NCBI GenBank assembly: GCA_026397255.1
Contig: JAPLVF010000014.1
Span: 1 to 59,023 of the forward strand
Direction of reading: 5' to 3'
DNA: 59,023 nt
Origin: Candidatus Beckwithbacteria bacterium
GTDB lineage: Bacteria; Patescibacteriota; Microgenomatia; UBA1400; CG1-02-47-37
Both the position numbers and the translations under genes were made by a program. Positions 2,497-46,520 of this stretch are shown here, one piece after another. Each line of letters begins with the position of its first letter. The stretch's first letter is position 1. The notes below the pieces were generated by a model. The model was not told where the DNA came from, did not search any database, and saw nothing but the letters and a program-made list of their open reading frames with translations.

Positions 2497-3642
2497 ATGT
2501 TAATCGGTATTGATGCGTCGCGGGCGTTTGGAAAAGACAAAACCGGTACGGAAAATTACTCTAAAGAAATAATTGAGGCGATTTTAAAATTGCCGGAGGC
2601 AAAAAAACATGAATTTATTTTATATGTAAGAAATCCCATAAGGTCCGACCTTGCAGGACTGCAAGGTCGGACCTTGCAGGTAAAAGAAATTAACTGGAAG
2701 ATGTTGTGGACGCAGGGAGGGTTGGCATTAGAGCTTCTTAAAAATCCGGTCGAGGTTTTATGGGTGCCGGCGCATACATTGCCGGTTATCAGAAATCCTA
2801 AAATTAAAACTGTGGTGACGATTCACGGCTTGGAGTATGAGTTTTTACCCCAGTATTATCAGTTTCCCCAGAAATTATGGCTGAATAAGTCAACGGAATA
2901 CGCGGTCAAACAGGCTGACAGATTAATTGCGGTGTCAGCGTGGACAAAAAAACAATTAGCGGCAAGGTTGGGAGCGGATGAGAAAAAAATTACGGTAATT
3001 CACGAAGGGATAAGCCCTAAATTTATTAATAGGCAGTTTAGCGGCGAATATTTAAGACAGATTAGATACAAATACTCTTTGCCGGGAAAATACATTTTGT
3101 TTGTGGGTACAGTCCAGCCGAGGAAGAATTTAGTCAGGTTAATTGAGGCGTTTTCAAAATTAATCACACACCCGGTGTGTGGACATCTTCCACACCGGGT
3201 GTGGAATGGGGATTTGGTCATAGTCGGGAAATTGGGATGGATGTATGAGGAGATTTTGGCGGCACCAAAAAAATATAAAGTGGAAAAAAGAGTGAAATTT
3301 ATCGGCCGGGTGGCCGAAGCGGATTTGGCCGCGGTCTATAAAATGGCCCAAGTGTTTGTCTACCCGAGTTTAATGGAGGGATTTGGTTTGCCGATTTTAG
3401 AGGCTTTGGCTTTAGGCATACCGGTAATTACCTCTGATCGGGGAGCGTTGCCGGAGGTAGCCGGGGAAGGGGCCTTAATCATTAACCCGGAAAAAACAGA
3501 AGAAATTACTCAGGCGATTCGCTTGGTTTTAGAAAACGATGAATTGAGGCAGGGATTGATTGAAAAAGGTTTACGCCAGGTAAAGCAGTTTTCTTGGGAA
3601 AAGGCGGCCCGGGAAACTCTGGAAATTTTAACAGATTGGTGA
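2497..3642 (+). CDS. Glycosyltransferase, GT-B fold (family 4/GT1-like)
   Basis: ATG at 2497 lies 1 nt after the mreB stop; the track start at 2389 overlaps mreB and is rejected. C-terminal YPSLMEGFGLPILEALALGIPVITSD.GALPEV is the typical EX7E region. Confidence 0.85.
   Translation: MLIGIDASRAFGKDKTGTENYSKEIIEAILKLPEAKKHEFILYVRNPIRSDLAGLQGRTLQVKEINWKMLWTQGGLALELLKNPVEVLWVPAHTLPVIRNPKIKTVVTIHGLEYEFLPQYYQFPQKLWLNKSTEYAVKQADRLIAVSAWTKKQLAARLGADEKKITVIHEGISPKFINRQFSGEYLRQIRYKYSLPGKYILFVGTVQPRKNLVRLIEAFSKLITHPVCGHLPHRVWNGDLVIVGKLGWMYEEILAAPKKYKVEKRVKFIGRVAEADLAAVYKMAQVFVYPSLMEGFGLPILEALALGIPVITSDRGALPEVAGEGALIINPEKTEEITQAIRLVLENDELRQGLIEKGLRQVKQFSWEKAARETLEILTDW
2640..2680. repeat. In-frame palindromic element (family B copy 1)
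   Basis: AAGGTCCGACCTTGCAG-GA-CTGCAAGGTCGGACCTT is a perfect 17+17 inverted repeat. It encodes ..IRSDLAGLQGRTLQ.. within the glycosyltransferase. Confidence 0.8.
3167..3217. repeat. In-frame palindromic element (family A copy 2)
   Basis: CACACCCGGTGTGTGGACATC plus the palindrome TTCCACACCGGGTGTGGAA plus TGGGGATTTGG. It encodes THPVCGHLPHRVWNG between the conserved LIEAFSKL and LVIVGK segments. Confidence 0.8.
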
Positions 3643-6348: not shown

Positions 6349-6878
6349 TTAGATTTCACCCCCTTGTCCGCCTTAACCTTGGCGATGGCGGATATCGCAT
6401 AAACTAATTTTCTAATGTTACCGGCCAGAACGTTAACAATACCGTAAAGCGGGGATTTAAGCGTGCCGACGGTTTTGGCCAGAAGTTCGACTTTGGTGGG
6501 CAAGCTGGCTAATTGATTAACCTGGGTGTCAGTTAAGGGCTTTTTAGCCAAAAAGCCCAGTTTGATTTTCGGCAGTTCGTTGGTTTTGGCAAATTCGGCT
6601 AGGACTTTTATTGGGGCAATTTCGTCTTCGTAGGCGAAAAGTATCATGACCGGTCCGGTAAGACTGGCGGGGAGGGAGTATTTTTCTGCTTTTAAAGCCA
6701 GAGAAATGAGGCTGTTTTTGGCGACGATTAGTTCGGCGTTAACGGCCTTGACCTGATTTCTTAATTGGCGCTGTTGATTAACGGTTAAACCACGGTAATC
6801 GGACAAAACAACAGATTTAGATTTTTGGAGTTTTTCGGCAAGGGTTGAAACAGTAGTAAGATTTTGTTGACTTGGCAT
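6345..6878 (-). CDS. rplJ: 50S ribosomal protein L10
   Basis: Position upstream of rplL with an ATGA-type overlap, plus the [14 protein letters not shown] motif. Confidence 0.9.
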
Positions 6879-35793: not shown

Positions 35794-36582
35794 ATGAGCT
35801 TTAAGTCAAGTTCGGCGGAAAAACCGACCGAAAAAGGTTTGCAGTATCATATCCGGTTAAAAGCCGGGGATATTCCGCCTTTTGTGTTGATGCCGGGAGA
35901 TCCGAAACGGGTCGTGAAAATCGCCTCTTTGTGGGATAAAAATCAGTTTGTGGCTGATTACCGGCAGTATGTGACTTACAAAGGTGAGTATCACGGGGTA
36001 AAGTTGGCCTGTGTTTCCAGCGGGATCGGCTCGCCGGCATTGGCGATTGCCTTGGAAGAGTTGGTAAGAATTGGTACTAAGACAGTGATTCGGGTGGGGA
36101 CGTGCGGCAGTTTACAGCCGGAGATGTATCCGGGTGATTTAGTGATTACGACCGGGGCGGTGCGATTGGACGGGGCGTCGAAAGATTATGTGATTCCGGA
36201 ATATCCGGCCGTAGCGGATTATCGGGTGGTGGAAGCTTTAATTAAAGCTTCCAAAAAATTAAAGGTTAAATATCATGTTGGCATTACCGCTTCGACCGAT
36301 ACATTTTATTGTGGGCAGGGGCGGTCGGGATTTAATGATTATTTGCCTAGCCATAAAGAGAATATTTTTAAAGATATGCAAAAAGCGAGAGTGAAAAACT
36401 TTGAGATGGAAGGCGGGTGTTTGTTAACGTTAGCGTCAGTGTTCGGTATCAGCGCGGGCATGGTTTGTGTGGTGGTGGCTGACAGGGTTCATAATCAGTT
36501 TAAAATTACCGATGAAATGGAACAATCGGCAGCCTTAGTGGCCAGTGAAGCAATTAGGCTCTTGCAAATAAAATATAAATAG
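35794..36582 (+). CDS. PNP/UDP-1 family nucleoside phosphorylase (Udp/DeoD-like)
   Basis: MPGDPKRV, RVGTCGSL and NFEMEGG motifs. Confidence 0.8.
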   Translation: MSFKSSSAEKPTEKGLQYHIRLKAGDIPPFVLMPGDPKRVVKIASLWDKNQFVADYRQYVTYKGEYHGVKLACVSSGIGSPALAIALEELVRIGTKTVIRVGTCGSLQPEMYPGDLVITTGAVRLDGASKDYVIPEYPAVADYRVVEALIKASKKLKVKYHVGITASTDTFYCGQGRSGFNDYLPSHKENIFKDMQKARVKNFEMEGGCLLTLASVFGISAGMVCVVVADRVHNQFKITDEMEQSAALVASEAIRLLQIKYK

Positions 36583-36773
36583 TTTAAATAATTAAGTATG
36601 TTTCCTGATAGATTGCCGGAAATTAAAAGAGACAGAATTGATCCTGAATTAAAATCTGATTTACCCGGGACGGTTTCGGGAAGCACAGGGATGTCAGAAG
36701 AGACGGCTCAAGTTTATAAAACAGTAAAAGTTAGTGACGGGAATCTTGGACAAGCAGATAAATTAATTCCCGC

Positions 36774-36802
36774 TTGACAAGAAAAATTAATTTTAGTATT
36801 GT
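36774..36802 (+). promoter_or_regulatory. Sigma70-like promoter TTGACA-17-TATTGT for the pyr operon leader
   Basis: TTGACA at 36774-36779, TATTGT at 36797-36802. Confidence 0.5.
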
Positions 36803-36806
36803 TAAA

Positions 36807-36843
36807 TCCCAGAGCTATGAAACATAATTCTGGGAGTTTTTTT
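36807..36843 (+). terminator. Leader hairpin 1 plus U7 (attenuator candidate)
   Basis: TCCCAGA (36807-36813) pairs with TCTGGGA (29-35), followed by TTTTTTT (36837-36843). Confidence 0.45.
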
Positions 36844-36867
36844 ATCATAAAATTAACAGGAGGTAAC

Positions 36868-36889
36868 CCCGCGAGAGCGGGATTTTTTT
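36868..36889 (+). terminator. Leader hairpin 2 (CCCGC-GAGA-GCGGG) plus U7
   Basis: 5-bp GC stem with a GNRA loop, followed by TTTTTTT (36883-36889). Confidence 0.45.
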
Positions 36890-36907
36890 CCGCCAAAGGC
36901 GGACAAG
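36883..36907 (+). promoter_or_regulatory. 25-nt leader motif TTTTTTTCCGCCAAAGGCGGACAAG (copy 1), ending 1 nt before the start codon
   Basis: 24 of 25 nt identical to 43471-43495. Contains the hairpin CCGCC-AAA-GGCGG. Confidence 0.7.
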
Positions 36908-36908
36908 T

Positions 36909-38351
36909 ATGAAAAAAATAAACTTTAACGACCATTTTGCCAATTTAACCAAGATTAATGCCAGCTTGAATAATGGGGCCAGGGAAAACTATCAAAAAAC
37001 CGGGCTAACTTATGTGGATGTGCCGGAAATTGTGGGTATTACCGGCGCCTGCGAGAATGTGGATACTTTATTTAAGGTCGGTAACCGCTTAGATATTCCT
37101 TTGTTTTTTACCCAAACCGGCCAGCTTTCTTTAGAGCAGGCCTTGCAATCGTTTCACGGGGCTTTTACGGTGATTCATTCCGGCCGGGATGAAGAAGTGG
37201 AAGACGAACGGCATCTAAGACAATTTCGCCTGACGGAAGAAGAGTTTGACTGCACTTTGGCAGGAATGACCAGAAAAAATTACGATGAAGAAAAAATGTT
37301 TGAGGCGCTTTTACAGCATATCCAAAAAGCGATTCAGGGGATGATTAAAGCGGTTCTAAAAGACAATAAAACAATTCTTAAAAAGTTCTATGACCGGGAT
37401 ATTCTCAAGTTGGAGCAGGCCGCCAAAGTTAATTTTTTAAGAATTAATTACGAAGAGGCGGTTAAGCTGTTAAATAAACACGGTTTTAATAAATTAAAGT
37501 TTGGCGATGACTTAAAAGCTGATCACGAACAAATGGTGGTGAAATTACTAAACAAAAAAGGTTCAGAATTGCCGGTGTTTATCATGCGTTATCCCAAAGA
37601 AATTAAGTTTTTCAACATGAAGGTATCGAATAAAGATCCGCGGGTGGTTTTGTCGGCCGATTTAATCCTGCCCCATAGCGGTGAAGCGACCGGTTCGGCA
37701 GTGCGGGAACATGATTTTAATAAACTAAACCAGCGCTTACTGACATCAACGATGTACCGGCTGCATTTACAACGGGGTGGGGTTTATGCAGACTTTGGCT
37801 GGTATTTAAAGATTATTAAAGGTCAGGGGACGAATCCTCATGCCGGTTATGGTATCGGTAATGAACGCGTAATGCAGTATATTTTCGGGGAAAAAGATAT
37901 TAGGAATGTTTCCTTGTTTTCCCAGCTTAATAAGCAGTCACAGGATTGGCACGAAAAGCGCTATGGACAGGCAGCGCTGTACAGTATTGATAAAAAACAG
38001 CTGCTGTTAACGATCGGTAAATTAAGCGACAAAAAGAAACTTTTGCCTTATATTGCCAAATTAAATAAAAATTTTACCCTTTATGCGACCCAAAAAACGC
38101 ATGAATTTTTGAAAACTAAAGGAATTAAAACTGCCATGGTGCATAAAATTTCGGCGATCGGCCAAAAGCCGAACATCGGCGATTTATTAACCCGTCGGGT
38201 GTTTGACTTAGTGATTAATATCCCTCAAGGAAAGTCGGACGAGTTAACTGATGGTAAGCTGATCCGCCGGGCCTCGGCCGAAGCGGGAATATCCTTGATA
38301 ACCGATATGCCAATGGCTAAGCTAGTGTTAGAAAATCTATGCCGACACTAA
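36909..38351 (+). CDS. Class II aaRS-core / AsnA-like ligase (no anticodon-binding domain) fused to a C-terminal MGS-like domain
   Basis: Motif 2-like HLRQFRLTEEEF and motif 3-like HAGYGIGNERVMQYIFG. C-terminal LLLTIGKLSDKKKLL..LYATQKTHEFLKTKGIKTAMVHKI..FDLVINIP..GKLIRRASAEAGISLITD resembles the CarB C-terminal/MGS fold. Confidence 0.65.
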   Translation: MKKINFNDHFANLTKINASLNNGARENYQKTGLTYVDVPEIVGITGACENVDTLFKVGNRLDIPLFFTQTGQLSLEQALQSFHGAFTVIHSGRDEEVEDERHLRQFRLTEEEFDCTLAGMTRKNYDEEKMFEALLQHIQKAIQGMIKAVLKDNKTILKKFYDRDILKLEQAAKVNFLRINYEEAVKLLNKHGFNKLKFGDDLKADHEQMVVKLLNKKGSELPVFIMRYPKEIKFFNMKVSNKDPRVVLSADLILPHSGEATGSAVREHDFNKLNQRLLTSTMYRLHLQRGGVYADFGWYLKIIKGQGTNPHAGYGIGNERVMQYIFGEKDIRNVSLFSQLNKQSQDWHEKRYGQAALYSIDKKQLLLTIGKLSDKKKLLPYIAKLNKNFTLYATQKTHEFLKTKGIKTAMVHKISAIGQKPNIGDLLTRRVFDLVINIPQGKSDELTDGKLIRRASAEAGISLITDMPMAKLVLENLCRH

Positions 38352-39259
38352 AAGTTAATTTTTTAGGCGTTAGTTTTCCTAATCCATTAGTATTGCCGTC
38401 GGGGATTCTACAGGAGATTCCCGGCCACATGGTGGCCGTAAAAGCCGGGGTGGGCGGGGTGACGTTAAAATCTTTAACCCGTGAAAAACGGGAAGGAAAC
38501 CCAATGCCGCGGGTAATCAAATATGAATCTGGGATTTTAAACTCAGTCGGTTTAAGAAATCCGGGGATTGATAAGGGAATAGAATTGGCGGGTGAGTTTA
38601 TTAAAGTTTGTCCGGTGCCGGTAATTGTCAGCATTTTCAGTGTCAAAACCAGCGAGTTTGCTGAGTTAGCTAAAAAAGCTTTGGTGATTAAACCCCAGTT
38701 TTTAGAATTAAACTTATCTTGTCCGAATGCGGTGAACGAAATGGGTCAACCTTTGGGAATGGGGGTTGATTCAACAACTGCGGCAGTCAAAGCGGTTAAA
38801 AAAACAGTTGGCGCAAAAGTTAAATTAATTGCTAAGTTGTCACCGAATGTGATCAATATCGGCGAAGTGGCTAAGGCAGCGGAGGCAAGCGGTGCGGATG
38901 CGATTTGCGCGATTAATACGGTTGGTCCGGGCATGGTGATTGATATTAAAACCAGAAAGCCGATGTTGGGCAATTTAATCGGCGGTGTGTCCGGTCCGGG
39001 AATCCGGCCAGTGGCGGTTAAATGCGTTTGGGAAATTTATAAATCAGTTAAGTTGCCGATTATCGGTATGGGCGGAGTGGAGAAGGCTCGTGATGTAGTG
39101 GAAATGATGCTGGCCGGAGCGACGTTAGTCGGCGTCGGTTCAGCCATGTACCGCCACGGTTTTGAGGTTTATGAAAAAATTAAAGCTGATTTGGTTAAAT
39201 ATATGGAGGATAATAAAATTAATAAATTAGCAGAAATTATTGGAGGTGTCCATGAGTAA
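38339..39259 (+). CDS. pyrD: Dihydroorotate dehydrogenase, class 1 catalytic subunit
   Basis: FPNPLVLPSG, LNLSCPN (active-site Cys), IGGVSGPGIRP and MGGV..A.D..E...AGA. Confidence 0.9.
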   Translation: MPTLKVNFLGVSFPNPLVLPSGILQEIPGHMVAVKAGVGGVTLKSLTREKREGNPMPRVIKYESGILNSVGLRNPGIDKGIELAGEFIKVCPVPVIVSIFSVKTSEFAELAKKALVIKPQFLELNLSCPNAVNEMGQPLGMGVDSTTAAVKAVKKTVGAKVKLIAKLSPNVINIGEVAKAAEASGADAICAINTVGPGMVIDIKTRKPMLGNLIGGVSGPGIRPVAVKCVWEIYKSVKLPIIGMGGVEKARDVVEMMLAGATLVGVGSAMYRHGFEVYEKIKADLVKYMEDNKINKLAEIIGGVHE

Positions 39260-39881
39260 AATATTAACAATTTTAAAAAGAACTAAGGCAATTACGACTG
39301 ACAGCCATATTGTTTTAACTTCCGGAAAACACAGCAGTAAATATTTAAATAAAGATGCGTTGTATCCGCATACAAAAGAAGTTTCGCGCGTGGGAAAGAT
39401 GATTGCTCAAAAATATAAAGATAAAGAAATTGATGCCGTGATCGGGCCAGCCATGGGGGGAATAATCTTATCCCAGTGGACGGCTTACCACTTAACTAAA
39501 TTAAAAAGAAAAGAAATTTTAGGCGGGTATAGTGAAAAAGATGAACAAAACAATCAAATTTTTCGGCGAGGTTATGATCAGTTGGTTAAGAATAGAAAAG
39601 TCTTAGTGGTGGAGGACTTTACGACGACTGGCGGTTCGGTAAAAAAGACCGTGGATAGCGTGAAGGCTTTGGGGGGGGAAGTGGTGGGAGTTTGCGTGAT
39701 GGTGAATCGTGACCCTAAAAATGTAACGGCAAAAGTAATCGGAGCACCGTTTACTTCTTTAGGAATTTTCAGTGCCGATGCTTATGAGGAAAAATTCTGC
39801 CCGATGTGTAAAGCTAAAATGCCGGTTAATACTACCCTTGGTCATGGCCGGGAATATTTAAAAAAGAAAGCGGGAAAATGA
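39252..39881 (+). CDS. pyrE: Orotate phosphoribosyltransferase
   Basis: PRPP loop VLVVEDFTTTGGS. GGAGG sits 6 nt upstream of ATG 39252. Confidence 0.85.
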   Translation: MSKILTILKRTKAITTDSHIVLTSGKHSSKYLNKDALYPHTKEVSRVGKMIAQKYKDKEIDAVIGPAMGGIILSQWTAYHLTKLKRKEILGGYSEKDEQNNQIFRRGYDQLVKNRKVLVVEDFTTTGGSVKKTVDSVKALGGEVVGVCVMVNRDPKNVTAKVIGAPFTSLGIFSADAYEEKFCPMCKAKMPVNTTLGHGREYLKKKAGK

Positions 39882-40618
39882 ACTTTCAGGACAAGCTGGA
39901 CAAAATTGTTGCCAAAAATAATTCACTTCTTTGCGTAGGGTTGGACCAGGGAGAATGGGAGTTTAACCAGAAAATTATTGACCAAACCCATGATTTGGTG
40001 TGTGCTTATAAGCCTAATTTTGCTTTTTACGAAGCGTTGGGAATCAGAGGCTGGGAAAATTTAAAAAAAACAGTGGAATATATAAAAACATTCCACTCCG
40101 GAGTGGTAGTAATTGCTGATGCCAAGCGGGCGGATATCGGTAATACTAACGAGGGATACGTCAAGTCAATTTTTGATGATTTAGGATTTGATGCGGTGAC
40201 GGTTAACCCGTATTTTGGCCGGGAAGCGCTCCAGCCGTTTTTAGACCGAGCGGATAAGGGGATTATCATTTTATGTAAAACTTCTAATCCGGGTAGTGGT
40301 GAATTCCAGGACTTAGTTTGGGAAAAAGTTGCCAGAAATGTGGTCAATGATTGGAATAAAAATAACAACTGTTTGTTAGTGGCGGGGGCGACTTATCCGG
40401 AAGAATTAGCCAAAATCAGAAAAATTGCGGGGGAAATGACGCTATTAGTGCCGGGAATCGGGGAGCAGGGCGGGGATGTCGAAAAGACGGTTAAAGCCGG
40501 ATTAAACCGTCAGAAAGCCGGTATGATTATTAATTCTTCGCGCGGGATAATTTTTAGTGAAAATCCCCGCTTGGAAGCGCAAAAATTAAGAGATAGAATT
40601 AATCAATACCGCCAATGA
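39878..40618 (+). CDS. pyrF: Orotidine-5'-phosphate decarboxylase
   Basis: LCVGLD and IADAKRADIGNT (DxKxxD) motifs. ATGA overlaps at both ends. Confidence 0.85.
   Translation: MNFQDKLDKIVAKNNSLLCVGLDQGEWEFNQKIIDQTHDLVCAYKPNFAFYEALGIRGWENLKKTVEYIKTFHSGVVVIADAKRADIGNTNEGYVKSIFDDLGFDAVTVNPYFGREALQPFLDRADKGIIILCKTSNPGSGEFQDLVWEKVARNVVNDWNKNNNCLLVAGATYPEELAKIRKIAGEMTLLVPGIGEQGGDVEKTVKAGLNRQKAGMIINSSRGIIFSENPRLEAQKLRDRINQYRQ
40082..40116. repeat. 35-nt segment with an 18-nt palindrome core (family C copy 1) inside pyrF
   Basis: ATAAAAACATTCCACTCCGGAGTGGTAGTAATTGC is 33 of 35 nt identical to 42772-42806 in guaB, in the same reading frame (FHSGVVVIA). Confidence 0.85.
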
Positions 40619-41454
40619 AATACAAAATTGTCAGCGCTAAACCAAAAGAAAAACTGGATGTTGCCAAATTAATAAAATATCCGAAAGATTTTCACGGCTC
40701 GACGAAAGTTGATCATTTAGTTAAATTCGGGGATTCGTTTGTCAGTTTAATTGGTAAAAGCGAGGCGGATTTGCCTAAAGATGGAGTGGTGATTTTGGAA
40801 CATGATTTTGACGAAGCCAGAAAATTAATGGATAAGATTAATGAGTTGGCCCAACAGGTAATCAGCGACGCGACTAAATATGACGATGTTGGTTTTTGCC
40901 GGGAATACTTTAATTTGGCTCAAGCTGGTTACAGAATGCTGGATAAATATAAACCGGTGGGAATACCTGTTAGTTTAGAGCGGGCCGGATTAGTAACAAC
41001 CAGACTGGTTTTAGGGGTAGACAGAGATGCGGTGATTGAGAATGAGCAGCGGGTAGTGACTAAGCGAACACATCTTGTTGCCGAGCCGGACACAAATTTG
41101 TCGGTCACGGTTCAGTGGCGGGATATCCCTAAGCTAAAACAAATCTCAAGCCGGGAAATTCTTTTAAGCGATTTTGTTAATCCGGCCTCCGGAGCTTCCG
41201 GGCTGGCTTTTATTGTGGCGGCTCAGGCCAAAGGCCTAGCCGTAGCGAAAATTAACCATCGGTCAATCAGCTGTACCCGGCAAGGATTGATTTTTACCAG
41301 AAAAACATTAGCCGATATGGGGATTAAAAGTAGTTTTACAAGTGTGGGTGAAGCGAACGAATTAAATGAAATGTATTATTTAACCGGCCAGAGGGCGGTC
41401 GCCGATGCCGGGCACTTATTGCGTCACTTCCTACCCAAGTGGTATAAACAGTAG
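40615..41454 (+). CDS. Uracil-phosphoribosyltransferase-like protein with an N-terminal extension of about 90 aa
   Basis: LLSDFVNPASGASG resembles the Upp PRPP-binding loop (DPMLATGGS), and the C-terminal YYLTGQRAV.DAG resembles the uracil-binding region. Sequence is divergent. Confidence 0.55.
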   Translation: MKYKIVSAKPKEKLDVAKLIKYPKDFHGSTKVDHLVKFGDSFVSLIGKSEADLPKDGVVILEHDFDEARKLMDKINELAQQVISDATKYDDVGFCREYFNLAQAGYRMLDKYKPVGIPVSLERAGLVTTRLVLGVDRDAVIENEQRVVTKRTHLVAEPDTNLSVTVQWRDIPKLKQISSREILLSDFVNPASGASGLAFIVAAQAKGLAVAKINHRSISCTRQGLIFTRKTLADMGIKSSFTSVGEANELNEMYYLTGQRAVADAGHLLRHFLPKWYKQ

Positions 41455-41456
41455 AT

Positions 41457-42344
41457 ATGTTGGTTTTTTCCGGCACTTCAAATAAGTTATTGGCAGCCAG
41501 GTTAGCTAAAGCGTTAAAAACGAGACTGGGAAAAATTGAATTATCTAAGTTTCCGAATGACGAAATCAGAGTGTGGGTGACAGAAAAAAATGTGGGCAAG
41601 CGAGCCGTGGTGGTGCAGTCTTTGTCGCATCGGACAGACAACCATTTGATGCAATTTTGCTTGATTTGCGATGCTTTAAAAAGAAAAGGGGTTAATAAAA
41701 TTATTGCGGTGATTCCCTGGATGGGTTATTCCAAACAGGATAAAGCTTTCCGGCCGGGCGAGCCGTTATCAGCTCAGGTGGTCGCTAAAATGTTAGAAGT
41801 AACACAGTTAACAAAAATAATTACTTATGATTTACACAAACCGGAGATTGCCAGATTTTTCAAAACTAAAGTAATTAATTTGTCCGGCAGAAGAGTTTTT
41901 CGGGAGTATTTTAAAAATAAAGTCGATCAAAATACGGTCGTGGTGGCGCCGGATGAAGGAGCCCGTAATTCCTCCAAGCGGTTTGCTTATGATTTAAAGG
42001 CACATGTGGCCTACATTAAGAAAAAAAGAGATTTAAATACCGGCAAAGTCACGGTTAGAGGCATCAGCCGGAGCGTGGCCGGTAAGAAAATTCTCATTAA
42101 AGATGACATGATTGCTACCGGCAGCACTTTAATCGAAGCGGCTAAATTTTTAAAAACCCAAAACGTGGCGTCGATTGCCGTGGCCGCGACGCACCATTTG
42201 TATTTGCCGGGAGTGCAGGAAAAGTTAGACCAAAGCGGGATTACCAACTTAGTGGTGACGGATACGGTCGAGCCAAAAGCACGATCAAAAAAACTAACGG
42301 TGGTGAGTGTGGCGGAAATGATTGCTAAAGAAATTAGAAACTGA
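41457..42344 (+). CDS. prs: Ribose-phosphate pyrophosphokinase (PRPP synthetase)
   Basis: FPNDEIRV, PWMGYSKQDK, TYDLH and DDMIATGSTL. Confidence 0.9.
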   Translation: MLVFSGTSNKLLAARLAKALKTRLGKIELSKFPNDEIRVWVTEKNVGKRAVVVQSLSHRTDNHLMQFCLICDALKRKGVNKIIAVIPWMGYSKQDKAFRPGEPLSAQVVAKMLEVTQLTKIITYDLHKPEIARFFKTKVINLSGRRVFREYFKNKVDQNTVVVAPDEGARNSSKRFAYDLKAHVAYIKKKRDLNTGKVTVRGISRSVAGKKILIKDDMIATGSTLIEAAKFLKTQNVASIAVAATHHLYLPGVQEKLDQSGITNLVVTDTVEPKARSKKLTVVSVAEMIAKEIRN

Positions 42345-42348
42345 TTTG

Positions 42349-43422
42349 ATGAACAAAGTCATTAATTTAAATAATCAAAGCGAGTGGTTGACGTTTGACG
42401 ATGTGTTATTGCTGCCGAATTATTCGGAAGTGACGCCTTCAAAAACGGATACAACAACTAAGTTAACAGAAAAAATTAAATTGCCAATTCCGATTTTAGC
42501 CTCACCGATGGACACAGTTTGCGAATCAGCGATGGCCCTCCGTTTAGGTAAAATCGGCGGGTACGGCATTATCCATCGTAACTTATCAATCGAAAAACAA
42601 GTGGGCGAATTAAAATTGGTTTTAAAAGCAGGGGTAAAAGCAGGAGCGGCGGTTGGGGTAGGGGTGGATTTTAAAGATAGAGTGGCGGCTTTAATTAAAG
42701 CCGGGGTGAAGGAGATTTGTGTGGATTCGGCCCACGGCCACACGAAACACGTTATTGAGGCAATTAAAAAGATAAAAATATTCCACTCCGGAGTGGAAGT
42801 AATTGCCGGCAATGTGGCTACTTATGAAGGCGCTGATGATTTATTTAAAGCCGGCGCGGCGGCAGTCAAAGTAGGGATGGGGCCGGGTTCGATCTGCACC
42901 ACCAGAATTATGTCCGGCATGGGAGTGCCGCAGTTGTCAGCGATTGTGGCTGGGGCCAAAGCGGCTAAAAAATATAAAAAAAGCATTATTGCCGACGGCG
43001 GTATCCGTACCAGCGGAGATCTGGTGAAAGCTTTGGCGGCCGGAGCGGCTGCAGTGATGCTGGGTTCTTTATTAGCCGGGACTGACGCGGCGCCGGGGAA
43101 ATTAGTCACTTATCAAGGTAAAAAATATAAAACTTACCGGGGAATGGGTTCGGTTGGAGCGATGAAGCAAGGGAGTGCCGAACGTTATGGTCAGAAAAAA
43201 ACCGATAAAATCCTGGTGGCGGAGGGGGTGGAGGGATTAGTAGAATACAAAGGCAAGCTGGAAGATTTTGTTTACCAGTTAGTCGGCGGGTTAAGATCAG
43301 GTTTAGCCTACCTGGGAGCAAAAAACTTAAAAGAATTGCGGCAAAAGGCCAAGTTCATCCGGATTTCCCGCGCCGGCGTGTATGAATCCCGGCCGCACAG
43401 CATTTTGCTGCTTGACAGGTAA
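42349..43422 (+). CDS. guaB: IMP dehydrogenase lacking the CBS (Bateman) subdomain
   Basis: [33 protein letters not shown] (catalytic Cys), IADGGIR and the IMPDH flap [15 protein letters not shown]...VAEGVEG. Only 357 aa. Confidence 0.85.
42772..42806. repeat. 35-nt segment with the perfect 18-nt palindrome TTCCACTCCGGAGTGGAA (family C copy 2) inside guaB
   Basis: See 40082-40116. Encodes FHSGVEVIA. Confidence 0.85.
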
Positions 43423-43440
43423 AAAATAATCGATTATTTT
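43412..43440 (+). promoter_or_regulatory. Sigma70-like promoter TTGACA-17-TATTTT overlapping the guaB stop
   Basis: TTGACA at 43412-43417, TATTTT at 43435-43440. Confidence 0.45.
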
Positions 43441-43451
43441 GGAAGTAGATT

Positions 43452-43477
43452 AGGGCTAAGGAAGCCCTATTTTTTTT
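43452..43477 (+). terminator. Hairpin AGGGCT-AAGGA-AGCCCT plus U8 (guaB terminator and/or attenuator of the downstream operon)
   Basis: 6-bp stem at 43452-43468, T-run at 43470-43477. Confidence 0.5.
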
Positions 43478-43495
43478 CTGCCAAAGGCGGACAAG
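43471..43495 (+). promoter_or_regulatory. 25-nt leader motif TTTTTTTCTGCCAAAGGCGGACAAG (copy 2)
   Basis: 24 of 25 nt identical to 36883-36907. Followed by GGGCAG, AAAGGAGGT and then ATG 43515. Confidence 0.7.
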
Positions 43496-43514
43496 GGGCA
43501 GAAAGGAGGTAAAA

Positions 43515-43694
43515 ATGGTTAATTCAGAGAGGTTATTACCAGATCCTCCAGTTCCACAAGAAGCAACACCGGCGGAAACACATTCCAGACTAGAGTATTT
43601 GTCGCCAGAAGTACGGGAAAGATTACAAAAGCTCGCTGAAACTAGGGGGGAAGCGGCGGCGGCGGCGGAAACCGTGGGATTGATGGATGCATAG
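43515..43694 (+). CDS. Small ORF (59 aa) with a near-perfect Shine-Dalgarno, first cistron of the PRTase-guaA unit
   Basis: Own translation: MVNSERLLPDPPVPQEATPAETHSRLEYLSPEVRERLQKLAETRGEAAAAAETVGLMDA. AAAGGAGGT lies 5 nt upstream. It is below the track cutoff. Confidence 0.45.
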   Translation: MVNSERLLPDPPVPQEATPAETHSRLEYLSPEVRERLQKLAETRGEAAAAAETVGLMDA

Positions 43695-43713
43695 TTTTCC
43701 GCTATAATTAAAT

Positions 43714-44319
43714 ATGGCGAATGAGTTAGCTTTTTTAAAGCAGGAGTTTTTAAGGGAAGCGAAAGTCATTGATGCAACAAGAGGTTATATTTCAGTCGGC
43801 TCTTTTAATTTGCGGATGAAGCCGGAGGTGTTAAAGGCAGCAGCCCGATTAATCGCCAATGTTTTTAAAAACGATAAGATTGATACGGTCCACGGCATTC
43901 CTCATTCCGGCAATTATTTGGCAACGGCAGTGGCTCTGGAATTGGGAAGTAAAGTCCGGTTACACAGTTCACGTAAAGACCAGAATATTCCGACCAGCTG
44001 GAAAGATGTTTATCGTCAGGAAGTGCGGTCGTTTACGACTTCGTCCGGCGGGGTGGATGTTTTTTCCGGGATTAATTTATCTTTTGTGAAAAAAGGCGAC
44101 CGGGTGCTCTTATTGGACGATGTTTGTGCCAAAGGGGAAACCGGTTATAGAATTGTTAAAGGCTTGTTGGAGCGGGGAGTGAAAGTAGTCGGATTTGCGG
44201 TTTTATTTGATAAAGTTTTTCAGGGCGGATTAGAGCAAGTGCAGACTTTGGGGGTGAAAGTATTTTCCTGCGTGAGGGTAAAAAGTATCGACAAGAATGA
44301 TCAGGTGAAGTTGTTATGA
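43714..44319 (+). CDS. Type I phosphoribosyltransferase (purine/adenine-PRT-like)
   Basis: PRPP loop VLLLDDVCAKGETG. Overlaps the guaA start (ATGA). Confidence 0.7.
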   Translation: MANELAFLKQEFLREAKVIDATRGYISVGSFNLRMKPEVLKAAARLIANVFKNDKIDTVHGIPHSGNYLATAVALELGSKVRLHSSRKDQNIPTSWKDVYRQEVRSFTTSSGGVDVFSGINLSFVKKGDRVLLLDDVCAKGETGYRIVKGLLERGVKVVGFAVLFDKVFQGGLEQVQTLGVKVFSCVRVKSIDKNDQVKLL

Positions 44320-45800
44320 TTATTGTCATCGATTTTGGTTCGCAAACAGCCCATTTAATTAATCGAAGAATCAGGGATTTGGGAGTAGAGAGCCGGGTCG
44401 TCAGTTATAAAATAAGCCTTGAAAAACTTAAAAACCTTAAGGGAATAATTTTATCCGGTGGGCCAAGCTTTGTAAACTTGCCTAATTCGCCGACAATTTC
44501 CAAAAAAGTATTTAGCTTGGGGGTGCCGGTTTTAGGGATTTGTTACGGCATGCAGCTGATGGGTAAAATTTTAGGCGGCGAGGTTGGCAAAGGAAAAAAT
44601 AAAGAGTTCGGTGTGGTTGAGGTAGATCTAAAAAAATCTAAGCTGTTTAAAGGAATAAACGGCAAACAGCAAGTGTTAATGAGCCATGGCGATCAGGTGT
44701 TAAGACTACCGCCGGGATTTATTAATTTAGGTTCGTCTAAAGATGTGCCTAATGTCGCCATGGGTAAGGAGAAGCTTTTAGCGATTCAATTCCATCCGGA
44801 AGTAATCCACACAAAGAACGGGATAAAAATTCTTAAAAATTTTATTTTTAATATTTGCCTGGCGAGGAAAGACTTTAATCAATTAAAGTGGCAGAAAAGT
44901 GAAATTAAAGGCAGGGCAATCTGCGGTTTATCCGGCGGAATAGATTCGTCAACCGCGGCGGCTTTAGTTTATCAGGTAATAGGACGACAATTAAAATGTG
45001 TTTATGTGGATACTGGTTTAATGAGATTGGGGGAAACAGTCCAAATTGAAAAAGATTTTAAGAAATTTTTTAAAGAAGATTTAATTATTATCCGGGCGGA
45101 AAAGCAATTTTTAGAAGCCTTAAAGGGAGTGGAAGAGCCGGAAGAAAAAAGGAAAATAATCGGTAATTTATTCATTAAATTATTTGAAGCGGAAGCCAAA
45201 AAATGGGGAGCAAAATGGTTAGTCCAGGGGACGATTTATCCGGATGTGATTGAGAGTGCCCCCACTTCGCTAAAGCTACGTGGGGTTTCTGCTGAAACAA
45301 TTAAAAGTCATCATAATGTCGCTGGGTTGCCGGAAGAAATGAAGCTGAAATTAATCGAACCGCTGCGGGATTTATACAAGGATGAAGTGCGGCAGTTAGC
45401 CGCAAAATTGGGTTTGCCTAAAAATATTATTAAGCGTCAGCCGTTTCCCGGACCGGGGTTGGCCATCAGAATCAGGGGGGAAGTCACTAAGGAAAGATTA
45501 GATCGCTTGCGGCAGGCGGATAAAATTTTACAGGAAGAAATCAAAGAGCCGGTTTGGCAGACTTTTGCAATTTATGTGCCGTTAAAAACTACCGGGGTGA
45601 AAGGTGACGGTCGCAGTTTTGAAGACATGATTGCTATCCGTTCGGTGACTGCCAAAGATGCGATGACGGCCGACTGGACGCGTTTGCCCTATAAATTATT
45701 AGCTAAAGCTTCGGCTAGAATTGTCAATGAAGTAGCGGGGATTAACCGGGTGGTTTATGACATTACCACCAAACCGCCGGCAACAATGGAATGGGAGTAG
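44316..45800 (+). CDS. guaA: GMP synthase (glutamine-hydrolysing)
   Basis: GATase GICYGMQL and FHPE, PP-loop SGGIDSS, and IKSHHNVAGLP. Confidence 0.95.
   Translation: MIIVIDFGSQTAHLINRRIRDLGVESRVVSYKISLEKLKNLKGIILSGGPSFVNLPNSPTISKKVFSLGVPVLGICYGMQLMGKILGGEVGKGKNKEFGVVEVDLKKSKLFKGINGKQQVLMSHGDQVLRLPPGFINLGSSKDVPNVAMGKEKLLAIQFHPEVIHTKNGIKILKNFIFNICLARKDFNQLKWQKSEIKGRAICGLSGGIDSSTAAALVYQVIGRQLKCVYVDTGLMRLGETVQIEKDFKKFFKEDLIIIRAEKQFLEALKGVEEPEEKRKIIGNLFIKLFEAEAKKWGAKWLVQGTIYPDVIESAPTSLKLRGVSAETIKSHHNVAGLPEEMKLKLIEPLRDLYKDEVRQLAAKLGLPKNIIKRQPFPGPGLAIRIRGEVTKERLDRLRQADKILQEEIKEPVWQTFAIYVPLKTTGVKGDGRSFEDMIAIRSVTAKDAMTADWTRLPYKLLAKASARIVNEVAGINRVVYDITTKPPATMEWE
45259..45286. repeat. In-frame hairpin element (family D copy 2) in guaA
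   Basis: CCCCACTTCGCTAAAGCTACGTGGGG encodes APTSLKLRGV in the variable loop before IKSHHN. Confidence 0.5.
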
Positions 45801-46520
45801 CTAAAATTTTCCAATAATGCCGGTCAGCAATTTGGACATGTTCGGAGCGGCTTTGGCGGATTCGGCCAGCACCTCGCCGTGGGAGTGTTTGACAAAAGCC
45901 AGATTAGTGACAAAGGTTAGGCCGAGAACCTTCATGCCTAAATAATTAGCCATAATTGTTTCCGGGACATTACTCATGCCGACGACGTCGGCACCCATGG
46001 CGATCAACGCCCGCTTATCCGCCGGCGTTTCATACTGCGGGCCGTGACAATAAGCGTAAACACCGCGATGGCAACGCAACCTTAATTTTTTAGCCTGCTT
46101 TTCGGCTAGTTTAATTAATTGAAGATTAAAAACTTGGGACATATCAACAAATTTCGGGCCGACTAAGGGAGTTTGGGAGAGTAGAGTAATAATGTCCGAC
46201 AAGACCACAAAATCCCCAACGCGATATTTAGGGTTAAGCCCGCCGACAGCATTGGTAATAATTAAATTTTTAACACCAAGTTTTTTTAAATATTGAATTG
46301 GCCGGGTGACTTGTTGGGGAGAATAGCCTTCGTAAAGATGGAATCGGCCGGACATAATTAAGATCTCCTGATGTTTCAGGCGGGCGTGAATCAATTCGCC
46401 GCTATGGCCGGGAACAGTCGATTTTAAGTGAAAAAGCTTTTGGTAAGATTCGCGTTTGAGAATGACGACTTGGTTAATGATTGCGTTCCAGCCGCTGCCT
46501 AAAATTAAAGCCGTTTCCAT
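45801..46520 (-). CDS. Purine nucleoside phosphorylase (PNP family 2, PunA/MTAP-like)
   Basis: VPGHSGEL, GRFHLYEGY, TNAVGGLNP, HGPQYETPAD and VGMSNVPE. The start at 46520 (METALILGSGW) is preferred. Confidence 0.85.
   Translation of the reverse strand: METALILGSGWNAIINQVVILKRESYQKLFHLKSTVPGHSGELIHARLKHQEILIMSGRFHLYEGYSPQQVTRPIQYLKKLGVKNLIITNAVGGLNPKYRVGDFVVLSDIITLLSQTPLVGPKFVDMSQVFNLQLIKLAEKQAKKLRLRCHRGVYAYCHGPQYETPADKRALIAMGADVVGMSNVPETIMANYLGMKVLGLTFVTNLAFVKHSHGEVLAESAKAAPNMSKLLTGIIGKF

Follow-up and report, generated by a model that had tools for sequence, protein, structure and literature searches.

Shared palindromic segment in pyrF and guaB

The stretch of DNA analyzed here, referred to as the window, comprises 59,023 nucleotides (nt) of contig JAPLVF010000014.1 from a Candidatus Beckwithbacteria genome. 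It contains an operon of nucleotide biosynthesis genes, two of which carry nearly the same short palindromic segment. The first of these genes is pyrF (39878 to 40618, plus strand), which encodes orotidine-5'-phosphate decarboxylase (Pfam PF00215 OMPdecase, 126.9 bits, E value of 1.4e-36) and has an intact D-A-K-R-A-D-I-G motif. The second is guaB (42322 to 43422, plus strand), which encodes a member of the IMP dehydrogenase/GMP reductase family without the CBS insert (Pfam PF00478 IMPDH, 449.5 bits, E value of 9.3e-135). The start of guaB may be the ATG at 42349, and the database form of the protein is 357 amino acids (aa) long.

The segment lies on the plus strand at 40082 to 40116 in pyrF (ATAAAAACATTCCACTCCGGAGTGGTAGTAATTGC, read as I-K-T-F-H-S-G-V-V-V-I-A) and at 42772 to 42806 in guaB (ATAAAAATATTCCACTCCGGAGTGGAAGTAATTGC). 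A preliminary description of the locus, made from the window's sequence, had reported that the two copies agree at 33 of 35 nt and in the same reading frame, and this was borne out: both are read in frame 0 of their host open reading frames (ORFs), and a repeat search of the window extends the match to 40 nt at 90% identity. Two matches with at most three mismatches were observed in the window, where 0.01 would be expected from shuffled sequence, and a control pattern had no hits in the genome. Chance was thus rejected as the origin of the identity. An 18-nt perfect palindrome had also been ascribed to both genes. The guaB copy is indeed perfect (TTCCACTCCGGAGTGGAA at 42781 to 42798), but in the pyrF copy (TTCCACTCCGGAGTGGTA) one of the nine symmetric pairs is broken, leaving eight, with a perfect 14-nt core at 40093 to 40106. 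Together with an adjoining A-rich hexamer, the copies span 40085 to 40108 in pyrF (AAAACA followed by TTCCACTCCGGAGTGGTA) and 42775 to 42798 in guaB (AAAATA followed by TTCCACTCCGGAGTGGAA).

AlphaFold2 models (mean predicted local distance difference test scores of 91.7 for PyrF and 83.7 for GuaB) put the 18-mer in equivalent positions of the two TIM barrels. It encodes the last residue of a helix (F72 in PyrF and F154 in GuaB), a four-residue alpha-to-beta loop, H-S-G-V (H73 to V76 and H155 to V158), and the first residue of the next strand (V77 and E159). That strand covers residues 77 to 81 in PyrF, with D81 shortly before K83, and residues 159 to 165 in GuaB, with G163 and N164; the models thus agree with the earlier placement of the segment just before the catalytic beta-strand of each enzyme. 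In TIM barrels, the alpha-to-beta loops lie at the end that does not carry the active site.

Palindrome family and its putative transposase

The palindrome is not confined to pyrF and guaB. In the whole genome (895 kb in 19 contigs, named C13 to C18 and so on), TTCCACTCCGGAGTGGAA has seven exact copies in addition to the one-mismatch copy in pyrF, compared with none for a control pattern, and the aligned copies yield the consensus AAAACATTCCACTCCGGAGTGGAATGTTTT. These eight copies lie on four contigs, six of them inside ORFs of at least 150 aa and two in intergenic DNA. Besides pyrF and guaB, the hosts are the leucyl-tRNA synthetase (LeuRS) gene (C18:13288, read as IPLRSGM), an AAA_18 kinase-like gene (C17:201166, read as TFHSGVEC), a gene for a polytopic membrane protein (C17:73075, read as HSTPEWN), and a gene for an unknown protein (C15:49299, likewise read as HSTPEWN). 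The two intergenic copies (C15:37735 and C15:38438) bracket a transposase gene. All eight copies are flanked by (A)AAA[CT]A...TGT(TT).

The transposase gene (C15:37756 to 38421, minus strand) lies outside the window and encodes a protein of 221 aa. It matches Pfam PF01797 (Y1_Tnp) at 32.2 bits, above the cut-off of 23, and its only and best NCBIfam match, at 40.9 bits, is the equivalog model REP_Tyr_transpos (NF047646), which describes the transposases associated with repetitive extragenic palindromic (REP) sequences, the REP-associated tyrosine transposases (RAYTs). The protein has the motifs HFH (in PNHFHFLI) and YIHLNP (in SRYIHLNP). Palindromes lie at both ends of the gene, at C15:37730 to 37757 and 38436 to 38457; the 28-nt palindrome overlaps the stop codon, and the 22-nt copy ends 15 nt upstream of the start codon. 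Judged by its domain matches and motifs, the protein is a divergent relative of the RAYTs, and the palindrome is its putative cognate hairpin, that is, the hairpin of a RAYT-type Y1/HUH transposase.

Genomes with this family have 1 to 19 Y1_Tnp paralogues. The present genome has six (C15:37756, C17:169910, C18:19440, C15:24641, C16:35108, and C13:13584), and four of these adjoin distinct palindrome families: TTCCACTCCGGAGTGGAA, ATCACACACCGGGTGTGTGAT, TGTAAGGTACCGTACCTTACA, and CGACCTACAGG-loop-CCTGTAGGTCG. The ATCACACACCGGGTGTGTGAT palindrome belongs to a second transposase clade. Across eight palindrome families of the genome, 41 of 59 copies lie in long ORFs, and about 90% of the genome is long ORF.

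Two further occurrences of related sequence were seen. The module that had been called family A (TTCCACACCGGGTGTGGAA, window 3188 to 3206, within 3167 to 3217) joins the outer TTCCAC...GTGGAA arms of the pyrF/guaB palindrome family to the core (ACACCGGGTGT) of the palindrome that goes with the second transposase, and it adjoins CACACACCCGGTGTGTG. In addition, bins from other phyla, namely Omnitrophota (L096, L099, L100, and L106) and Lachnospiraceae (L105), each contain the exact 20-mer ATTCCAC[CT]CCGG[GA]GTGGAAT once, for the most part in intergenic DNA, which could reflect convergence, transfer, or binning error.

Covariation of palindromes and transposases in related genomes

The relatives and homologues compared are recorded in databases as Candidatus Beckwithbacteria or Patescibacteria. 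Orthologues of the C15 transposase are bracketed there by palindrome variants of their own: TAATATTCCATCCCGGGATGGAATATTA in genome G013, ATATTACCACTCCGGAGTGGTAATAT in G010, and AAATATTCCACCCCGGGGTGGAATATTT in G004, with TATATTACCGTTCCGGAACGGTAATATA on one side only in G001. Between the genomes of these orthologues, compensatory changes have occurred in both arms of the palindrome, and five orthologue-variant pairs (G013, G001, G010, G004, and G008) covary. A census with degenerate patterns found one dominant symmetric variant per genome and no control hits in any of them. Intragenic copies can follow this local variant as well. The pyrF copy of G011 (CGTTACCACCCCGGGGTGGTAACG) is the dispersed variant of G011 itself, and that of G013 recurs elsewhere in G013.

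The remaining host genes also carry different variants at the same site. Several genera have different variants at the same loop of the kinase, membrane, and unknown proteins, with a net length change of 0 to +4 codons, and in G001 that loop in these genes carries a different palindrome family. In LeuRS, the element forms a doublet whose position is common to G013 and G007, where it is built from their own palindromes. The LeuRS gene of the present genome (C18:12015 to 14495) also has TPGVKDVHTPGV and TPGVKEVSTPGV repeats, which resemble copies of the CACACCSGGTGTG family, and the LeuRS gene of G011 has a doublet at a different site. Another local cluster was seen in G001 (locus L043, C110:30200 to 33700), where four copies of ATATTACCACTCCGGAGTGGTAATAT lie 510 to 760 bp apart within 2 kb, with no match to the transposase query between them.

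History of the pyrF and guaB sites

In both enzymes the element occupies the place of a native K-[YF]-P-x-[VI]-E, with a net length change of 0 codons, and other lineages have their local variant at these very sites. Among 120 pyrF homologues, the native form is K-[YH]-P-E-[VI]-V-T; [YF]H[PS]GVVT is present in about 40, and the tree requires at least four changes. The pyrF gene studied here falls in a 31-member clade, 30 members of which have the element. The copy itself is a hybrid, since its left arm is the consensus of its own genome and its right arm, GTGGTA, matches the variant TTACCAC...GTGGTAA of relatives. Its sister (ACATTCCACCCCGGGGTGGTAACA) is the same arm hybrid with a CCCGGG center as opposed to TCCGGA, the center typical of the present genome.

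Two metagenome pyrF genes provide a close comparison. L120 encodes NYPEIVT and L121 encodes YHSGVVT; both genes are 738 nt long, and they differ at 49 positions without any insertion or deletion. Twenty-one of these differences fall within nt 204 to 230, a 27-nt block that is exactly the element AACGTTACCACTCCGGGGTGGTAACG. Divergence is 8% in nt 26 to 380, and there are no differences in nt 381 to 738, the 3'-most 358 nt. The pyr operons of the two loci are nearly identical but differ in content, with L121 lacking guaB after prs and having extra small ORFs.

Among 120 guaB homologues, the native form is IK.KYP.[VI]E[VI]I[AS]GNV. The closest orthologues of the guaB gene studied here have KANYPVIEIIAGN (76% identity) and KNKFPKIEVISGN at equal length, so that its copy is without counterpart in the nearest relatives. 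Four other homologues (three distinct sequences, with three loci read as DNA) have KTFHPGVE, encoded by AAAACATTCCACCCCGGGGTGGAA, and one of these four has a full 30-nt perfect palindrome, which changes the strand residues V-I to C-F. Carriers of the element are scattered in the protein tree, where well-supported branches need at least three changes. In a collection of 5.8 billion proteins, no relative of this GuaB exceeds 77% identity, and for that reason its copy has no before-and-after pair of the kind found for pyrF.

It is also important to consider whether the element was imported together with long flanks from carrier lineages. With the patch masked, the flanks of pyrF P0159 and guaB P0029 are nearest to relatives without the element, which led us to reject such import for these genes; guaB P0012 was less clear. 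The trees used in these comparisons are protein trees, which mosaicism can mislead.

Composition of the 35-nt identity

The identity between pyrF and guaB can be divided into parts of different origin. The 18-nt core is the element, and AAAA[CT]A is its A-rich left arm. The codons ATA AAA (I-K) and the bases ATT GC (I-A) specify residues that homologue alignments show to be native to both enzyme families, and the valine codon GTA is of native type in guaB and in pyrF falls within natural variation. If the residues are taken as given, the flank codons would be identical with a chance of about 0.05, and the match uses the rare codons ATA (12%) and GTA (13%). For the core, the probability that FHSGVE is spelled by exactly these codons is 5.6e-4, and the palindrome uses minority codons (TTC, 19%; TCC, 20%; GGA, 19%), so the core is not an effect of codon bias.

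Proposed replacement of a native loop by the palindrome

We think it very probable that the shared segment consists of two intragenic copies of the genome's own REP-like palindrome, which have replaced an alpha-to-beta loop in each enzyme. How the copies spread is a more tentative matter, and short-patch replacement is the route that we put forward. The reading as a whole seems probable to us, a compromise that is weighted toward the identity of the element. Under it, copies would arise and stay current through short-patch, template-directed replacement with other family members as donors, probably begun by the transposase acting on the hairpin in single-stranded DNA. Only where the native loop is similar to the encoded K-T-F-H-S/P-G-V-E would patches survive, and classical insertion would be the less likely route.

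Replacement is favored because the patches are of equal length, with borders that match the element; because they recur at sites that are already similar to it (an A-run, a central CCGG, and T-rich strand codons); and because there are half-element hybrids, symmetric switching of the center, and agreement with the dominant variant of the genome. A domain search found no MutS_V domain in this genome, and in the absence of MutS mismatched patches could persist. The preliminary description had offered gene conversion or insertion of a palindromic element as explanations. The segment does belong to a transposase-linked, genome-wide element, but native sequence was replaced and nothing was added, and conversion applies only in the broad sense of templated copying from a repeat family.

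Several observations weigh against this reading. All the genomes compared are metagenome bins, and the pairing of transposase and hairpin is a putative one, based on sequence. The transposase, at 40.9 bits, falls short of the curated RAYT cut-off of NF047646 (80), no GTAG or CGTC tag is present at the hairpin foot in the flanks of the eight copies, and eight copies is very low for a REP family. The pyrF copy of G003 differs from the dominant variant of that genome, so updating of copies is not universal. The L120/L121 pair is a recombination mosaic; recombination between lineages may thus contribute to the scattered distribution, and some of the apparently independent gains could stem from it. 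The LeuRS doublet is a true 19-codon insertion, which means that ordinary insertion also occurs. The rare ATA and GTA flank codons in both genes leave room for additional direct exchange between pyrF and guaB, and a small exchange of this kind could have contributed to the common flanks. Finally, length-neutral replacement is not predicted by insertion chemistry of the IS200/IS605 type, and its mechanism is something that we purely infer.

Alternative explanations

Two alternatives would account for the segment by selection on the host genes. The first is convergent protein constraint combined with AT-rich codon bias, such that both barrels need FHSGV-VIA and the DNA looks alike as a result. 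Both native loops do fit K-[YF]-P-x-V-x-[VI]-I-A, but the minority codons of the palindrome (with the above probability applying to each occurrence) speak against it, as does the lack of the peptide in most orthologues, which mostly have K-Y-P-x-V-E. Those that have FH[PS]GVE use the exact palindrome codons without synonymous drift, while the flanking codons vary. We regard this explanation as hardly credible, and it is refuted by the homologue alignments, the loci read as DNA, and codon usage together; the earlier view that protein constraint does not explain the 94% identity thus stands. The second is a selected DNA or RNA site (an operator, pause, or processing site) that coordinates the nucleotide biosynthesis genes, as had also been suggested. 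That two copies lie in one operon, in the same frame and at equivalent structural positions, and that hairpin potential is kept across genera through compensatory changes, would fit such a site. It is nonetheless very unlikely, given copies in LeuRS, the kinase, the membrane protein, and the unknown protein and around the transposase gene, variants that follow the genome and not the gene, and the lack of the site in most orthologous operons. The predicted mRNA hairpins within the two genes are also weak (-7.8 and -7.9 kcal/mol; z of -1.3 and -1.0), compared with -14.3 kcal/mol and a z of -4.9 for the full 28-nt element, and an Rfam search of window positions 36000 to 46000 gave no match at an E value of 1 or less. 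Because the RNA hairpins are weak, Rfam is empty, and copies lie in unrelated genes, we read the pyrF and guaB copies as probable tolerated passengers rather than operon regulators. They would be kept because K-T-F-H-S/P-G-V-E mimics the native K-x-Y-P-x-V-E loop.

The other alternatives concern how the sequence came to be there, and the main rival of replacement is classical transposition, in which the element was inserted as extra DNA and later deletions of neighboring native codons restored the loop length under selection. The net 19 codons of the LeuRS doublet, a kinase loop that is 1 to 4 codons longer in element-bearing genomes, and the description of intragenic REPs as insertions (Di Nocera 2013, PMC3733652) all lend it some weight; exactly zero net change in pyrF and guaB of every carrier lineage, and the 27-nt substitution block of L120/L121 with no insertion or deletion next to 358 identical nt, make it unlikely for these two genes. 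The pyrF and guaB copies lie 2.7 kb apart, and direct ectopic gene conversion, in which one gene donated a whole tract of 35 to 40 nt to the other, would explain why the identity runs past the 18-nt core into ATAAAAA and GTAATTGC, with rare ATA and GTA codons in both genes, and it would suit a guaB copy that the nearest relatives lack. However, the copies differ exactly at the positions that distinguish variants (ACA/ATA and GTGGTA/GTGGAA), the pyrF copy is old and common to its 31-member clade, I-K and V-I-A are native to both families, and the chance of about 0.05 for the flank codons is also counted against it. Six more identical cores lie elsewhere in the genome, which a purely pairwise event does not explain; such an event is not needed, and we consider it improbable. 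We are more doubtful still of an origin in situ, in which template switching within one molecule, without any donor, turned a native quasi-palindrome around CCGG into a perfect one. In its favor, TCCGGA or CCGGAA stands at the site in native pyrF, the right arm GTGGTAACG is similar to native V-V-T codons, and quasipalindrome mutagenesis by its nature leaves length unchanged. But the product is the genome-wide consensus that brackets the transposase, the same sequence arises in unrelated genes, and the intragenic palindromes of each genome largely agree, in either arm, with its dispersed family; in L120/L121, moreover, both arms differ from the native sequence, with five bases of the right arm changed too.

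Relation to known repeat systems

The closest counterparts of this system are the REP/RAYT units (REPtrons and REPINs) of Proteobacteria (Nunvar 2010, PMC2817692; Bertels & Rainey 2011, PMC3116915; Di Nocera 2013, PMC3733652; Quentin 2018, PMC6006769). As in those units, a Y1/HUH gene is bracketed by its putative cognate palindrome, copies are dispersed, variants covary with transposases, and there are several transposase-palindrome pairs per genome. Unlike them, the family has eight copies and not hundreds, its palindrome is perfectly symmetric, and it lacks the GTAG/CGTC tag that serves as a criterion in Di Nocera 2013. Six of the eight copies are intragenic rather than extragenic, six transposase paralogues occur in 0.9 Mb, single copies appear to replace sequence of equal length, and the curated RAYT model is not reached. 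Quentin et al. found no REP-like partner for their subclass 2.1 (PMC6006769).

In the published picture, REPs insert into intergenic DNA, and insertions into coding sequence are lethal or add surface loops (PMC3733652). The REPIN literature, which makes no mention of conversion, likewise regards insertions into coding sequence as detrimental to the host. Intragenic REPs and the Rickettsia palindromic elements (RPE) are known as insertions (PMC3733652). They are similar to the elements described here in being palindromes read in frame in functional genes, tRNA synthetases included, to which the LeuRS doublet corresponds; this doublet is also the only case here in which the element adds its own length to the host protein. 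Insertions of the RPE or intragenic REP type add 20 to 80 residues, usually at the protein surface, whereas pyrF and guaB gain no residues and instead have a core alpha-beta loop rewritten, in each case in an essential enzyme.

Two other phenomena bear comparison. The repeats SDR1-8 of Nostoc, attributed to Elhai et al. in 2008, are reportedly hairpin-forming dispersed repeats of about 21 to 27 nt that are apparently mobile and can sit inside other sequences. They come from a different phylum, and to our knowledge no associated transposase has been identified for them. Quasipalindrome template-switch mutagenesis, known from Ripley and the Lovett laboratory, makes a multibase, length-neutral change that perfects a palindrome in one step. 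It differs from the present case in that one arm serves as template for the other in cis, whereas the sequence produced here is a dispersed family's consensus, which requires a donor in trans.

Overall, this is a low-copy system of REP/RAYT type in a 0.9-Mb genome that is about 90% coding, and its mostly intragenic copies appear to have rewritten, on repeated occasions, the same core loop sites in pyrF and guaB. Ever since the link between REPs and RAYTs was made, it has been an open question how REPs are copied. One might speculate, though we would not call it likely, that RAYT-type transposases of these Candidate Phyla Radiation (CPR) bacteria spread and homogenize hairpins by overwriting partly similar host sequence at equal length, a process that could be termed replacement transposition or hairpin-patch conversion. 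If so, particular alpha-beta loops of essential enzymes would be recurrent landing pads, and old copies would be updated to the current variant of the transposase. This would be a manner of spread not yet described for mobile elements and would offer a handle on that of REPs. Replacement could be tested with this system, which offers before-and-after pairs from nature and a small set of defined substrates. More generally, a short and unexpected DNA identity between unrelated CPR genes can be the footprint of a repeat element, which matters for annotation, recombination scans, and protein-family alignments.

Other features of the operon

A further repeat was found around the pyr-gua genes. The 25-nt sequence TTTTTTTC[CT]GCCAAAGGCGGACAAG occurs at window positions 36883 to 36907 and 43471 to 43495, with 96% identity between the two copies, and also in inverted orientation at 6354 to 6374. 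It contains the hairpin TCCGCC-AAA-GGCGGA. The direct pair brackets the 6.5-kb operon, with one copy directly before the first pyr-gua gene (ATG at 36909) and the other 49 nt after the guaB stop codon.

The first gene of the operon (window 36909 to 38351) encodes a 480-aa fusion of a core like that of class II aminoacyl-tRNA synthetases (Pfam tRNA-synt_2, 2.8e-35) and, at the C terminus, an MGS-like domain (8.4e-14); for the leading gene of a pyrimidine cluster, this architecture is unusual. Between pyrF and prs lies an ORF of 279 aa (window 40615 to 41454) that has no Pfam match, and genes of 272 to 284 aa, also without a Pfam match, occupy the same place in the operons of L120, L121, L122, and L123.

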